A stretch of DNA of 64,000 nt, from positions 3,104,001-3,168,000 of the forward strand of contig CBDFIQ010000002.1 in the NCBI GenBank assembly GCA_965248195.1, written 5' to 3'. The stretch is from Longimicrobiales bacterium (GTDB lineage Bacteria; Gemmatimonadota; Gemmatimonadetes; Longimicrobiales; Gaopeijiaceae). Positions 37,673-47,960 of the stretch are shown here, piece by piece. The notes beneath the pieces are model-generated. The model was given only the letters and a program-made list of their open reading frames with translations, was not told where the DNA came from and did not search any database. The position numbers and the translations under genes are program-made. Within the stretch, counting starts at the first letter, position 1. The number at the start of each line of letters is the position of its first letter.

Positions 37673-38764
37673 ATGACGAAGCTCATTTCCGCGCTGGTCG
37701 CGCTGACCATGGTCGCGCTGATCGTGGCCGTACCCTCAGCAGACGCGCAATACGCACCCCAGATTCCAGTGGAGTCCGTGCCGGACTTCTTCCGGCTGCC
37801 GATCGGAGTGAACTTCGGCGAGGTGCCCGCCGTGGCCGTCAATTCTCAGGGTCACATCTTCGTGTACAGCCGCTCGAATCCCACCGGGGGTGGTCCCGCA
37901 TACGGCATTCACGCGGCCCAACTGTTCGAGTTCAGCCCCTCGGGCGACTTCATCCGTGAGCACGGCAGAGGGCTCTACGCCTGGGCGTTCGCGCACGGGC
38001 TCAGGATCGATGCGAACGACGACATATGGACGGTGGACAAGGGCTCCAACATGGTCATCCGGATGGACCCTGCGGGCCGGGTCGTCTGGGTGTTCGGCCG
38101 CAAGGCGGAATCGAGCTCCGAGGGGGCTCGCCCGATCGAGCGTCGAAATCCCCCGGCCCCCCCTCAAGACGGGCGTTTCCGCGAGCCCACGGACGTGGCC
38201 TTCGACTCGCAAGGCAACATCTACATCAGCGACGGATACATAAACTCCCGAGTCGCCAAGTACGACATGAACGGCGATTGGGTGATGTCGTGGGGCGAGC
38301 CCGGCACGGGCCCCGGCCAGCTCCGCACCCCACATAGCATAGCGATCGACAGAGATGACAACGTCTATGTCGGCGATCGCTCGAACGCTCGGATTCAGGT
38401 GTTCGACACGGACGGCAACTTCCAGCGGATGTTCAGTGTGGCCACCCCGATCGCGCCCGGCTCCAAGGCCGTGAACGGCACCACCCCGACGGACCTCATG
38501 AGCGTGAGTGGGAACGGGGCGCCGAACTCGCTCTGCATCCCGCCAGGGAGCAACGTCATCTACGTGGGCGAGAGCACGTTCCCCGGGCGGATCATCAAGG
38601 CGACACTCCAGGGCGAGGTGCTCGGGGTCGTCGGCAACGCCGGGCGAATGCTGGGTGAGTTCTCAGGGGTGCATGGACTTGCCTGCCCCACGGAGGACTT
38701 GCTCTTTGCTGCGGAGACCTCGAACTCACGGGTGCAGAAGCTGATTCTGAATCCGCGGAGGTAG
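37673..38764 (+). CDS. PAL-like NHL-repeat protein
   Basis: AHGLRID, PTDVAFD, SDGYINSRV, PHSI, GDRSNARIQ, VHGL; signal peptide. Confidence 0.88.
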   Translation: MTKLISALVALTMVALIVAVPSADAQYAPQIPVESVPDFFRLPIGVNFGEVPAVAVNSQGHIFVYSRSNPTGGGPAYGIHAAQLFEFSPSGDFIREHGRGLYAWAFAHGLRIDANDDIWTVDKGSNMVIRMDPAGRVVWVFGRKAESSSEGARPIERRNPPAPPQDGRFREPTDVAFDSQGNIYISDGYINSRVAKYDMNGDWVMSWGEPGTGPGQLRTPHSIAIDRDDNVYVGDRSNARIQVFDTDGNFQRMFSVATPIAPGSKAVNGTTPTDLMSVSGNGAPNSLCIPPGSNVIYVGESTFPGRIIKATLQGEVLGVVGNAGRMLGEFSGVHGLACPTEDLLFAAETSNSRVQKLILNPRR

Positions 38765-39942: not shown

Positions 39943-41142
39943 GTGAGCACCACGGCAACCGCTGACAGCACAACCATCCCTGGCTCTGAGCCACCCGCCG
40001 CGGGCCTCGCGGCCGCGGCCGACCGCGGCGTGCCCTGGTACATCTGGGCCGTCGTCTTCGCCTCGACCAGTGTGGTCGTCGGAGGGATCTGGGACATCTC
40101 GTGGCACCGCACGATCGGGCGGGACACCTTCTGGACCTCAGCTCACATGGCGATTTACCTCGGCGGCGCGGCCGCTGGGCTCTCGTGCGGCTGGTTGGTC
40201 CTGCGCACGACATTCGCAGCTGTTGCCGCCGGCGATCGCGCTGCGGGGGTCACGTTCTGGGGCTTCCGTGGTCCACTCGGTGCGTGGGTCTGTATCTGGG
40301 GCGCGTTCGCGATGATCGTGTCGGGGCCGTTCGACGACTGGTGGCACAACACGTACGGCCTCGACGTCGAGATCCTGAGCCCGCCGCACACGGTGCTCGC
40401 CGCGGGCATCGTCGGGATCCAGATCGGTGCCATGCTCATGGTGCTCTCGCGACAGAACAACTCCGGTGCCCACTCCTGGCTCGCCCAGCTGCTCTTCGTC
40501 TACGCCGGGGGTGTGTTGATCGTCGCGATGGCCACTGTGGCGATCGAATATGTCGGTTTCCCCAACGACCAGAGGAACGCCGAGTTCTATGTAGTCAGCG
40601 CGGGAATCTTTCCGCTCTTCTTCGTGGGGATCTCCCGCGCTTCGCTTTCTCGGTGGGGGGCTACGGGGGCGGCCGCGGCCTACATGGCCCTAACGGTCCT
40701 CATGATATGGATTCTGCAGCTCTTCACCGCCGAGCCTCTGCTCGGTCCGATCCTTCGGCCGGTCGAGAGCATGATTCCGCCGCCGTTCCCGCTTCTGCTC
40801 GTCGTGCCCGCGCTCGCGGTCGATCTGCTCATGAGGACACTTCCCGCGCAAGTCTCGTCCGTGCGCCCCTGGATCATCGCGGGGGCCATCGGGCTCGCGT
40901 TCGTGGCCGCTCTGCTTGCCGTGCAGTGGTACTTCTCAGCGTTTCTGCTCGGCGAAGGGGCGCGCAACTTCCTCTTCGGCGCGGATCAGTGGGACTACAC
41001 CTCTCGTCCGGGGCCGTGGCAGTACGAGTTCTGGGGCCCGACGGTGCAAGCGAGTGAGCTCGCATGGGCCGCGCTGATTGCCTTCGCATCTGCACGGATC
41101 GGGCTCTGGTGGGGCGGCTGGATGAGTCGCGTGCGCCGGTAG
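39943..41142 (+). CDS. Integral membrane protein, putative PmoC/AmoC-like + PmoA/AmoA-like fusion
   Basis: WDISWHRTIGRDTFWTSAH (D51/H55/H68) and FDDWWHNTYGLDVEILSPPH (D131/H135/H149); second half has FP...RWGAT, FP-LLVVPAL-VD-L, QW. The CDS is secure; the family call is an inference. Confidence 0.7.
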   Translation: MSTTATADSTTIPGSEPPAAGLAAAADRGVPWYIWAVVFASTSVVVGGIWDISWHRTIGRDTFWTSAHMAIYLGGAAAGLSCGWLVLRTTFAAVAAGDRAAGVTFWGFRGPLGAWVCIWGAFAMIVSGPFDDWWHNTYGLDVEILSPPHTVLAAGIVGIQIGAMLMVLSRQNNSGAHSWLAQLLFVYAGGVLIVAMATVAIEYVGFPNDQRNAEFYVVSAGIFPLFFVGISRASLSRWGATGAAAAYMALTVLMIWILQLFTAEPLLGPILRPVESMIPPPFPLLLVVPALAVDLLMRTLPAQVSSVRPWIIAGAIGLAFVAALLAVQWYFSAFLLGEGARNFLFGADQWDYTSRPGPWQYEFWGPTVQASELAWAALIAFASARIGLWWGGWMSRVRR

Positions 41143-42686
41143 TGCTGTTGCGCCCGAACAGAAGTACCTGGCCAGCCCTCGCGTTCACATTAGGCGTCAT
41201 GATCGTTGCGTCGGCACACGTAGGGAGCTCGAACGCCTACTTCGAGGGGATGGCCGGACCCTACCCCGTGCGTGTGATCGTTCGGACGCCGGGGGTTATC
41301 CCGGGGCTCGCTCAGATCTCGGTGCGTATCACCGGGGAGTCGGCACCGACTTTCGTCACCGTACGCCCGTTGCGCTGGGACGCGGGGCTTCAAGGGGCGC
41401 CACCTCCGGATACCGCCCGGGCCGTTGCCGGGGAGGCCGGCCTATACTGGGCCGAGCTCTGGCTCATGACCACCGGTTCGTACAGCGTCCACGTCCACGT
41501 CGCCGGTGATGCAGGCGATGGCACCGTGTTCGTTCCCGTCAACGCCGTCGCCGAGAGCCGCCGAGAGATGGGCCGGGCGATGGCAGTCGGGCTGATCGGC
41601 GCCGCGTTGTTTCTATTCGTCGGGGCTATGACGGTCTTCGGCGCCGCGGTTCGCGAGAGCGTGCTTGCGCCGGGGGAGGAGCCTGACCGGAAGCTACGTC
41701 GGCGAGGCGCTGTTGCGACCGGATTCGGCGGCGGCGTGCTCGCTTTGATCCTTTGGGGTGGCTGGGCGTGGTGGGGGGCGGTGGACACCGCATATCGGGC
41801 GGGCATCTATCGGCCACTCGCGACGACGTCGGTCTTGGAGACCGGCGAAGCGGGGCCGGTGCTCACGCTGCGAATCGACGATCCCCAGTGGATGGGACGA
41901 GAGTGGACGCCACTGATGCCCGACCACGGAAAGCTCATGCACATGTTCCTGGTGGGAGACGAGGCTCTGGGGGCGTTCGCGCACATCCACCCGGAGTCCG
42001 CCGACTCGACCTCGTTCGCCGTACCCTTTCCCCCGCTCCCGCCTGGGACCTACCGCATCTACGCGGATATCGTAGACGAGAGCGGCTTCTCCCAAACGCT
42101 GGTCGACACGGTCAAGGCGGGTGCGGAGGTCGAGACAGCGTCGCTCGAGGCGCCCGGTCGAGATCCCGACGACTCCTGGGCTGTGCTCCCCGCCCGGGGG
42201 CGGGCGAGTGGCGAGCGCTTCGCGCTGCCCAGCGGTCGGACCCTGATTTGGGAGGCCGGCATGCAGCCGGGGCTGGACGCCGAGACCACGCTGGCTTTCC
42301 GAGTCACGGAGCCGGACGGCACACCCTCCGCTCTCGAGCCGTATATGGGCATGCTGAGCCATGCGGCAGTAACTCGGGACGACGGGTCGGTCTTTATCCA
42401 CATGCACCCCGCCGGGAGCATCAACCTGGCGGCGCAGGAACGCTTCCGGAGAGCCGAAGATGGCGCCGGTTCCAACACTCAGGGTAGGGGCATGCCGGGG
42501 AGGGGCATGCCGGGAAGGGGGATGCCGGGAAGTGGCATGCCGGAGATGGCGGATGCCACACCGACCGACGTCGTGAGCTTTCCGTTTGTGTTCCCGGCCC
42601 CCGGTGCGTATCGGATCTTCGTGCAAGTGAAGATCGACGGCGCGGTCGAGACCGCGGTGTTCGACGTGGAGGTGCCCGAGGGGTAA
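41142..42686 (+). CDS. Exported two-TM His/Met-rich putative copper protein with PmoB-like layout
   Basis: GTG start overlaps the previous TAG; signal ASA|HVGS; two central TM helices; HGKLMH, HIHP, MGMLSH, HMHP motifs. Confidence 0.7.
   Translation: MLLRPNRSTWPALAFTLGVMIVASAHVGSSNAYFEGMAGPYPVRVIVRTPGVIPGLAQISVRITGESAPTFVTVRPLRWDAGLQGAPPPDTARAVAGEAGLYWAELWLMTTGSYSVHVHVAGDAGDGTVFVPVNAVAESRREMGRAMAVGLIGAALFLFVGAMTVFGAAVRESVLAPGEEPDRKLRRRGAVATGFGGGVLALILWGGWAWWGAVDTAYRAGIYRPLATTSVLETGEAGPVLTLRIDDPQWMGREWTPLMPDHGKLMHMFLVGDEALGAFAHIHPESADSTSFAVPFPPLPPGTYRIYADIVDESGFSQTLVDTVKAGAEVETASLEAPGRDPDDSWAVLPARGRASGERFALPSGRTLIWEAGMQPGLDAETTLAFRVTEPDGTPSALEPYMGMLSHAAVTRDDGSVFIHMHPAGSINLAAQERFRRAEDGAGSNTQGRGMPGRGMPGRGMPGSGMPEMADATPTDVVSFPFVFPAPGAYRIFVQVKIDGAVETAVFDVEVPEG
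42483..42542 (+). repeat. In-frame 15-bp x4 repeat encoding G(R/S)GMP
   Basis: GGTAGGGGCATGCCG-like unit repeated four times. Confidence 0.9.
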
Positions 42687-44984: not shown

Positions 44985-46109
44985 TCAACGTGCTACCCAC
45001 GGCGTTCCAATGATCAATGCCGGATCTGCATCAGGCTTGGCTACGAACTTTTGAGTCCGGCCATACTGATTGTCTCCTCCGTAAAGATTACCCTCCGAGT
45101 CGACCGTAAACGTATGCACTTCGAGATATCCATTCGGTAGCTCTCGGGGGACATTCCACGTGTATAGCCGATTACCCTCGAAATCCATCTTGACGAACCT
45201 GAGCGGTCCCAGGGTGGTTATCCAGATACTGTCCTCGTTGACAATGATGTCCAAAGTCAGGCCAAAACCGCCCCAAACATCAACAAACTCGACTTCTCTC
45301 GGATCGTCTGTGGTCCTGAACACGTTGACTCGACCACCCGAGCGATCAAGGGCAAAGATCAGACCATCGGGCCCGATGCCTATCGCATGAATGCCATTGA
45401 ATTGACCGGGCCCTTCTCCGCGCCCTCCAAACTCTGATAAATATTTTCCGTCGCTATCCAGGATGATGACGCGATGATTGTCCAGCCCATCAGCCACCAG
45501 AACTCTTCCGTCGGGTAAAAAAGCCACGTCCTGCGGCCTGCCGAAATGGGTCTCGTCGTCTCCCGGGGTCAGTTTCTCACCCAGCGTCATCAGCAGTTCA
45601 CTGCCGTCGTTGGAGAACACGTAGATCTGATGAAAGGTCTCGTTGACCACCCACACCCGGCGCTCAGGATCATAGGGGCTTATGCGAAGCCTGTGAGGTC
45701 CTGGTCCTTCTGAACCTGCGCACAAGTAGTCCCACTGATCCCAAATGTCGATCACGTTGCCATCACCATCGATGGTATACAGGCAGTTCTGCCAGGTGCG
45801 CAGATCGGTCGCACTCAAAGTGTTGATCCCGAGGGATCCTGCATATCCTGCAAATTCGGGAGGAATCGGGATCGGCAATCTCGTTTCGCCACGCTGCGCG
45901 ATGAAGATGCGATCCGGCGATTCAGCGAATATCCCGGAATTCCCGCCGAAGGCAAAACCTTGCTTGGCAAATGGTTTATGCCACCCTTCGACGACGTCAT
46001 AAGGGCTGGGGCCGATCGGTCCAAGATCCTGCGATGAAGCTGGTCCGGAAAACAACACGGCAAGTAAACCGGTAAGCGTCGTAACCGCTTGAAGTTCTGA
46101 AGTGCGCAT
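44985..46109 (-). CDS. NHL-repeat (PAL-like) protein; lower GC than its neighbours
   Basis: GPH, RPQD, ADGL-N-RV, IHAI, LDR, VHTF; signal peptide. Confidence 0.85.
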   Translation of the reverse strand: MRTSELQAVTTLTGLLAVLFSGPASSQDLGPIGPSPYDVVEGWHKPFAKQGFAFGGNSGIFAESPDRIFIAQRGETRLPIPIPPEFAGYAGSLGINTLSATDLRTWQNCLYTIDGDGNVIDIWDQWDYLCAGSEGPGPHRLRISPYDPERRVWVVNETFHQIYVFSNDGSELLMTLGEKLTPGDDETHFGRPQDVAFLPDGRVLVADGLDNHRVIILDSDGKYLSEFGGRGEGPGQFNGIHAIGIGPDGLIFALDRSGGRVNVFRTTDDPREVEFVDVWGGFGLTLDIIVNEDSIWITTLGPLRFVKMDFEGNRLYTWNVPRELPNGYLEVHTFTVDSEGNLYGGDNQYGRTQKFVAKPDADPALIIGTPWVAR

Positions 46110-46322
46110 GATCGTATGAGCTCCGAAATGTGGATCTGTGATGACGCCGATGTCTTGTTATTCAGCCTATCATGTACAACCAAACGATGCAGGGTTCAAC
46201 TTCACTGCGAAATCCTCGCCTGCACCTCGCGCTCCACAAGTCCCCGTTTTACCTTGGCTGGTCCCGGAGGGCTCTCTGCCGTCTGGCGGTCCTATCCGTG
46301 GTTTCCTTCAAGGGAGGTTTCA

Positions 46323-47960
46323 ATGTTGCGTTCGATTCGAACGGGACTCCTGGCAGGTGCTACGCTCGTTGCAGTACCGGCGCTCCAGTCGGGAGAGGTG
46401 ATGGCCCAGTTACAGGACCAGTCGCAGATCAGCCCGACCAACGGTCTGCCCAACCCCTACGAGCGCGTCCACCCATGGGGCGAGCTCCCCACGGGTCTCT
46501 ACGATGAGCGGGCGTCGTTCATCGGGGCGGAGGCGGGTCCGGACGGCAACATCTACCTTCTGAGCCGCTGTCTCCAGAACTCGTGCACTGGACGGCCTGA
46601 ACCGCCGGTCCTGAAGCTCGATCCCTCCGGAAGGCTACTGAAGACGTGGGGTTCGGGGATGTTGGAATTCCCCCATGGCTTCGACGTGGACGACGAAGGA
46701 AACGTGTGGGCAAGCGATCAGCGCGGCCACCAGGTGTTCAAGTGGAACGCGGAGGGCGACCTCCTGATGACGCTCGGGCAGAAGGGCATCCAGGGGGACC
46801 CGCCCCGTCTTCTCACCCAGCCGACGGACCTGGTGGTGGCCCCGAACGGCAACATCTTCGTCACCGAAGGTCACGGTGGGGGCGGCAACCGGGTCTCGAA
46901 GTACACGAGCGACGGGAGGTTCGTCATGTCTTGGGGAACCACGGGCTCGGGCGTCGGGGAGTTCATTGTTCCCCACACCATTGCGCTGGACTCGCAAGGC
47001 CGGGTCTTCGTCGGGGATCGTATGAACAACCGGATCCAGATCTTCGATCAGCAGGGGAATTTCCTCGACGTCTGGTACCAGTTCGGTCGCCCGAGCGGCA
47101 TCGCCATAGGCGCCGATGACAGGATTTACGTCGCTGATTCCGAGTCGTGGGGTACCGACAACCCGGGGTGGAAGAAGGGAATTCGGGTGGGCAACGCGCG
47201 GGACGGGACGGTCCTGTACCTCATCGAGGACATCGAATCCACCGCGACCGAGCACAGCGGCGCGGAAGGTGTCGGGGTGGACTCCGAAGGTAATGTCTAC
47301 GGGGCGGTTGTTCGCAGGCGGATGCTCGAGAAGCACGTGCCCGGCGCGGTTTCGGGGACGGCCATGGCTCAACAGGGGGCGCAGGCGCCTACGCATGTTG
47401 CGCATGTCGCTTCTGGCTTCGGCTCAACCCCCGACGGAAAGGGTCTCGCCGCAACGGCCACGACCGAAGCGGGGATCGCGATGCTGCATGCCAATTTCGC
47501 AGTGGGGGACCTCAGCGACCTCGCGGCGATGCAACGACACGCCGGCCACGTTCTCCATGCGCTCGACCCGGCAGAAGGAAGCCGGGGACCGGGGCTCGGC
47601 TTCGGGCTCATCCGCGCCGTGGAGGGCGTGGCGACCCACATCGAGTTGGCGGCGGGTGCCGCCGGTGCCTCGGCGGGTGTGCGCACTCACGCGCAGCACG
47701 TCGCCACGGTCGCTCGCACAGTCGCACGCCGCGCAGAGGAAGCGGCCGCGGTCGCTCGGCGGCTGCAGACGGCGCCTTCGATACGGCGAGCCTCCCCACT
47801 CGTCGCCGAGTTGCGCCTCTTGACGTACCATATGGTTGAGGGCGGAGACCTAAACGGTGACGGGAATTTGTCGCTGGACGGGGAGGCCGGCGTACAGCAG
47901 CTCGAAGCGCACGTCTATCTCCTCCTCGACGGAGATGGACTTCCGAGGATGCTCAGGTAG
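46323..47960 (+). CDS. NHL-repeat (PAL-like) protein with extra C-terminal His-rich helical domain
   Basis: FPHGF, QPTD, VPHTI, GDRMNNRIQ; roughly 190-aa Ala/His-rich tail with DLNGDG; GGAGG RBS. Confidence 0.85.
   Translation: MLRSIRTGLLAGATLVAVPALQSGEVMAQLQDQSQISPTNGLPNPYERVHPWGELPTGLYDERASFIGAEAGPDGNIYLLSRCLQNSCTGRPEPPVLKLDPSGRLLKTWGSGMLEFPHGFDVDDEGNVWASDQRGHQVFKWNAEGDLLMTLGQKGIQGDPPRLLTQPTDLVVAPNGNIFVTEGHGGGGNRVSKYTSDGRFVMSWGTTGSGVGEFIVPHTIALDSQGRVFVGDRMNNRIQIFDQQGNFLDVWYQFGRPSGIAIGADDRIYVADSESWGTDNPGWKKGIRVGNARDGTVLYLIEDIESTATEHSGAEGVGVDSEGNVYGAVVRRRMLEKHVPGAVSGTAMAQQGAQAPTHVAHVASGFGSTPDGKGLAATATTEAGIAMLHANFAVGDLSDLAAMQRHAGHVLHALDPAEGSRGPGLGFGLIRAVEGVATHIELAAGAAGASAGVRTHAQHVATVARTVARRAEEAAAVARRLQTAPSIRRASPLVAELRLLTYHMVEGGDLNGDGNLSLDGEAGVQQLEAHVYLLLDGDGLPRMLR

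Follow-up and report, generated by a model that had tools for sequence, protein, structure and literature searches.

Can subunits C and A of a copper membrane monooxygenase (CuMMO), encoded by separate genes in canonical enzymes, occur joined in one natural protein, and if so, what might such a protein do? The question is raised by an open reading frame (ORF) in a window of 64,000 nucleotides from a Longimicrobiales bacterium (GenBank assembly GCA_965248195.1, contig CBDFIQ010000002.1, positions 3,104,001 to 3,168,000; coordinates below are those of the window unless another locus is named). The ORF (39943..41142, + strand, GTG start, 399 amino acids) has ten predicted membrane-spanning or membrane-embedded helices and joins a PmoC-like core to a PmoA-like domain. 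We conclude that the N-terminal half of this fused protein is almost certainly homologous to PmoC, and that the C-terminal half is probably homologous to PmoA.

The PmoA-like domain and the PmoC-like core

The C-terminal half, residues 178-399 (222 residues; 40474..41142, +), is predicted to form a six-helix PmoA/AmoA-like domain with the fold of subunit A, and the original prediction of PmoA-like signatures here is supported mainly by comparison of this model with PmoA/AmoA chains in the Protein Data Bank (PDB). The better-resolved chains score 13.2-14.4 with 194-214 residues aligned; chain 3chx_B scores 9.4 in both fold-comparison runs, so the score scales agree. Four PmoA-like segments, which had been claimed to follow the PmoA order, are present and collinear at residues 221-227, 236-247, 279-297 and 310-329 (40603-40623, 40648-40683, 40777-40833 and 40870-40929, +). 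By sequence the domain falls below the PF02461 cut-off, and the absence of DWDFW noted earlier extends to the whole family, with a DWDFW-like motif in 0 of 149 family rows versus 50 of 50 fetched PmoA/AmoA sequences.

These reference sequences were gathered with a back-translated PmoA motif, which found 121 metagenome stretches and left, once near-duplicates were removed, 50 sequences of subunit A, 44 of subunit C and 45 of subunit B, all bacterial; one of the A sequences, searched against the PDB, matched PmoA/AmoA chains only. Aligned profile to profile with the 50 PmoA/AmoA sequences, residues 178-399 fall in the register originally noted, collinear over 162 columns, but the match is weak (probability 9%, E 0.0035). 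Its score was reached by none of 60 column shuffles, none of 60 shuffles of 12-column blocks and 6 of 60 shuffles of 25-column blocks, and reversed profiles gave E 0.43. In single-sequence comparisons, a check on whether generic membrane proteins match equally well, 20 of the 50 PmoA sequences (related to one another, not independent) reached E<=0.05 versus 8 of 279 ORFs for membrane proteins of the same genome, the best decoy belonging to no family. No match to PmoA at the level of hidden Markov models (HMMs) was found, on the other hand, in Pfam and NCBIfam, which assign the query to no family, among the 25 families listed for 98 family members, or in PDB sequences. An hmmsearch with the C-half profile ranked PmoA sequences at 8 of the first 13 places among 459, none significantly, and a PmoA profile search of 323 membrane ORFs left the query outside the top 10.

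The predicted model of this half also has the six-helix fold of, and superposes on, the S-components of energy-coupling factor (ECF) transporters, and this shared fold, seen in the model, is a caveat on the PmoA reading. The half might instead be a binding domain of ECF S-component type that, together with a fused metal bundle resembling cytochrome b561 or PmoC, works as a solitary transporter (solitary S-components exist); its likeness to PmoA would then be one of fold only. We regard this as improbable, given the PmoA/AmoA scores and aligned lengths above, a sequence signal that favours PmoA over S-components (0 of 14 single sequences and profile E 0.11, the 14 being few and mixed), the PmoC-like sequence of the neighbouring domain, and a genome, 91.8% complete, with no match to EcfT/CbiQ (PF02361), whose control matched in 11 of 14. 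Nor is an S-component family among those shown for the 98 members. Homology to PmoA remains the preferred reading, and the fold match points to a common ancestry or architecture of PmoA and ECF S-components; the superposition would imply that PmoA itself has an S-component-like fold. S-component, PmoA and monooxygenase were not found together in any publication searched, subscription journals lying outside the search.

Within this half, residue 211 (40573-40575) is Arg in the query, whereas 119 of 149 family rows have His; near it, E202, found in 113 of 149 family rows and 87 of 87 actinobacterial rows, lies roughly at the place of DWDFW in PmoA. Ten PmoA rows of the fold comparison start at model residues 15-19 (only the range ends being known), and for this reason a short N-terminal helix (39988-40023) may occupy the place of the PmoA N-terminal segment.

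The N-terminal half holds a four-helix PmoC/AmoC-like core (residues 32-177; 40036..40473, +). All five PDB-sequence matches of the family profile (149 rows) are subunit C, AmoC or PmoC (best E 1.3e-4), and hhalign aligns the half with subunit C at E 9.3e-8 over 103 columns, in a register that lays D51/H55/D61/H68 onto the CuC site and D131/H135/H149 onto CuD. The CuC-type ligands D51, H55, D61 and H68 (40093..40146, +) are conserved in 127/127, 116/127, 120/127 and 127/127 rows with a residue there, and the CuD-position set D131, H135, (D141) and H149 (40333..40389, +) in 138/141, 131/141, 129/141 and 139/147, or 91-100% of such rows throughout. Their spacing equals that of the AmoC ligands (D136, H140, D146, H153; N207, H211, E218, H225) in the available part of PMC13058606. 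The CuC Asp-His-His triad is thus present as D51, H55 and H68; at CuD, His135 and His149 are in register and Asp131 replaces the Asn of 44 of 44 fetched subunit C sequences.

The core is an internal two-fold repeat, whose copies align with E 1.8e-6, and in the actinobacterial branch with E 2.5e-12, whereas PmoC's own two halves do not align with each other (E 0.03), so the family has two CuC-like sites; the visible repeat suggests that CuC and CuD arose by duplication. Repeat 2 alone gives no significant match to the CuD half of PmoC (E 0.09). In a tree of 72 rows (26+26+20 of those available, without archaeal AmoC or a true root), a long branch (3.5 changes per column, support 100/100) sets all 26 subunit C sequences apart.

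A fusion of C-like and A-like parts had been called unusual. Of the 80 related loci on which all counts out of 80 are based (the best among 590 confirmed ones), 78 have it in a single uninterrupted frame and two are frameshifted near the 3' end, which rules out an assembly artefact. The same literature search, with the same limit, found no fusion of this kind. Divergent CuMMOs keep separate A, B and C genes in the available parts of PMC13058606, PMC9038741, PMC12533140, PMC13492269 and 10.64898/2026.08.31.748207; here there are two genes in all. A natural C/A split in G007 was ruled out, as the break is a frameshift near residue 169 and the junction has no start codon.

The partner gene and the predicted complex

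Directly downstream in 80 of 80 loci lies a partner gene, here 41142..42686 (+), whose likely GTG start shares one base with the stop codon before it (TAGTG) and whose product has a predicted 25-residue signal peptide. Cleavage between A-x-A and H-V-G, placed from the sequence, would leave His as mature residue 1 (41217..41219, +), and the H[VI]G motif is preceded by a hydrophobic leader at 80 of 80 loci, as it is in 117 of 120 homologues (at 8 loci the automatic pattern picked up a match further upstream, and H[VI]G was read from the sequence listing instead). The mature protein is predicted to comprise an immunoglobulin (Ig)-like domain, two membrane helices and two related His/Met-rich Ig-like domains; the model (predicted local distance difference test, pLDDT, 92.8) shows a beta-sandwich, then two helices, then two beta-sandwiches. 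Domains 2 and 3 align at E 2.2e-6, and across 109 partner rows, 62 of them cut at His1 by design, nine His and two Met never vary.

The partner was considered as a true PmoB homologue and this was rejected as not shown: hhalign gives E 0.02-0.29, and PmoB is absent from the listed fold matches of the 489-residue model, folded whole rather than by domain. Those matches are Ig-like folds; CrdA ranks fourth and CopC further down. The conserved HxH of the CuB site is lacking, the H91/H93-like positions of the query's partner being variable; His1 is found in 45 of 45 fetched PmoB sequences, by selection.

The predicted complex of the fused protein with its partner scores 0.76 versus 0.00 for the best of three controls; the mark of the calibration, roughly applicable here, is reached by 116 of 157 solved pairs versus 2 of 215 mismatched pairs. 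On this model the fused protein very likely binds the product of the next gene; likeness to pMMO (particulate methane monooxygenase) could contribute to the score. In the predicted complex the partner's helices lie against helix 3 of the core, its first domain rests on the loop belonging to the second metal site, and its invariant residues P29, G30, W82 and M84 form part of the interface close to residues 135-142 and 264-271; His1 is absent from the listed contacts.

Relatives, genomic context and function

The fused protein belongs to a large unnamed family (5256 matches among 7997 candidates; 2380 representatives at E<=0.001), found in 72 of 301 genomes of the host phylum, a tally that includes the unpublished G178, used there only. 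Named close homologues come from Gemmatimonadota and Acidobacteriota, with Verrucomicrobiota more distant. An ESM Atlas search gave unnamed clusters only (best 0.80 for the C-half), a Foldseek search of the PDB gave no match at E<=0.001, with subunit C reaching E 1.3, and PDB searches with the single sequence and with a close alignment were uninformative. The paralogues L207:702-1844, L208 (minus strand) and L209:555-1697 keep the A-like half and have wholly or partly lost the C-like metal ligands, with no partner gene detected beside them within the fetched stretches. A weak homologue (E 0.1; H8, NC_018022.1 407678-408004) lies on a plasmid of Mycolicibacterium chubuense NBB4, a strain that carries a hydrocarbon CuMMO.

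A distant branch of 370 proteins was reached via a Streptomyces plasmid match. Its 87 non-redundant actinobacterial rows hold in one chain a C-like core (E 5e-30 to the query family), an A-like part (E 1.2e-9) and an end made of a helix closing in A-x-A before HDPGQG (His in 87/87), followed by a beta domain and one final helix; judged by sequence, the chain repeats the C-A-B order in one gene. Its B-like tail gave only weak matches (E 0.026 to the partner, E 0.014 to PmoB) that leave homology to the partner unsupported, and its middle region links no more strongly to PmoA (E 0.34). The single-chain form (L204:5007-6440 and P0393-P0512) occurs beside cupredoxin, HMA and P-type ATPase genes on Streptomyces mirabilis plasmid pI.

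No third gene is conserved next to the pair, and no copper-gene enrichment was seen near close relatives. Three secreted NHL-repeat-like beta-propeller genes lie within 7 kb of it (37673-38764, 44985-46109 and 46116-47960); the first is a Pfam NHL match, and the trio is not conserved beside the pair at other loci. After the partner in 6 of 80 loci (e.g. L064:8666-9361) stands a gene for a PP-loop-like ATPase. The host is aerobic, with cytochrome oxidase subunit I, and its genome gave no canonical CuMMO match, an absence that is unproven because the PF02461 and PF04744 controls matched nowhere.

For the function of the pair we tentatively favour copper handling, at somewhat short of even chances. 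The pair would capture copper, the inferred metal, and hand it on at the membrane's outer face rather than oxidise methane or ammonia: the partner would gather it with its N-terminal His and His/Met domains and transfer it to the twin membrane sites, where it would be held, possibly with redox change, for uptake or delivery. The balance tips this way because the partner is rich in His and Met and has a CrdA/CopC-like fold, and because one distant homologue has copper neighbours. Ranked behind it, at perhaps one chance in three, is a minimal copper membrane monooxygenase or oxidase, with C and A fused, the partner as subunit B and a dinuclear copper centre activating O2 for a lipophilic or amine substrate. 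Both ligand sets at AmoC spacing, the retained PmoA fold and C-A-B order, the partner's PmoB layout and N-terminal His, the aerobic host, the patchy single-copy distribution and the lack of copper genes near close relatives are consistent with such an enzyme, whereas Asp for Asn at CuD, the missing DWDFW, the missing first two PmoC helices, a partner without PmoB sequence match or conserved HxH, and the lack of conserved product-processing genes nearby argue against it. That the twin Asp-His-His sites bind Zn, Fe or Mn in a membrane hydrolase or reductase is very unlikely: two symmetric Asp-rich sites would, by established coordination chemistry, suit harder metals, and the N-half has a fold match to cytochrome b561, but the partner is His/Met-rich and the distant branch has copper neighbours.

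Comparison with known systems

In the available part of PMC13058606 the active site of pMMO and ammonia monooxygenase (AMO), whether CuC, CuD or both, and the origin of these enzymes are open. It is conceivable, though we think it unlikely, that the family is the sister group of all CuMMO and shows their assembly, being itself a compact copper-O2 enzyme, with the actinobacterial C-A-B chain offering, in a single gene, a natural model of the pMMO/AMO active site. A two-helix metal hairpin would then have been duplicated into twin CuC-type sites, the second later becoming CuD by Asp to Asn, and the hairpin pair would have been combined with a domain of ECF S-component fold and a periplasmic domain with N-terminal His. 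Fused, widespread and equipped with both ligand sets, and occurring in hosts without canonical CuMMO match, the family offers an outgroup for pMMO/AMO and a one- or two-gene system for expression.

The fused protein resembles the CuMMO core in metal-site layout and stands outside CuMMO by gene structure, CuD Asn and DWDFW. From PmoA/AmoA (PF02461; 4phz_B, 9leg_A, 9pxf_D) its A-like domain differs in its low identity (11-17%, no HMM match), its lack of DWDFW and its fusion to a C-like core. From ECF S-components (5edl_A, 5d0y_A, 4dve_A) it differs in aligning over fewer residues than with PmoA, in the absence of sequence signal and in a genome without EcfT match. Compared with PmoC/AmoC (PF04896; 9leg_C, 7s4m_C), the fused protein lacks the first two helices, as does archaeal AmoC in the available part of 10.64898/2026.08.31.748207, has Asp for the CuD Asn, keeps a recognisable internal repeat and is placed outside all 26 sampled subunit C sequences (no archaeal rows). 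The partner has in common with PmoB/AmoB (PF04744) its gene position, signal peptide, N-terminal His and layout of beta domain, two helices and beta domain, but differs in its three Ig-like domains, its lack of sequence match and of the conserved CuB HxH, and the absence of PmoB from its listed fold matches. Its scores to CrdA/CopC/YtkA-like periplasmic copper proteins (9ll2_A, 5icu_A; PF13115) do not stand out from those of other Ig folds, and from these proteins the partner is set apart by its two-helix membrane anchor and two extra His/Met domains.
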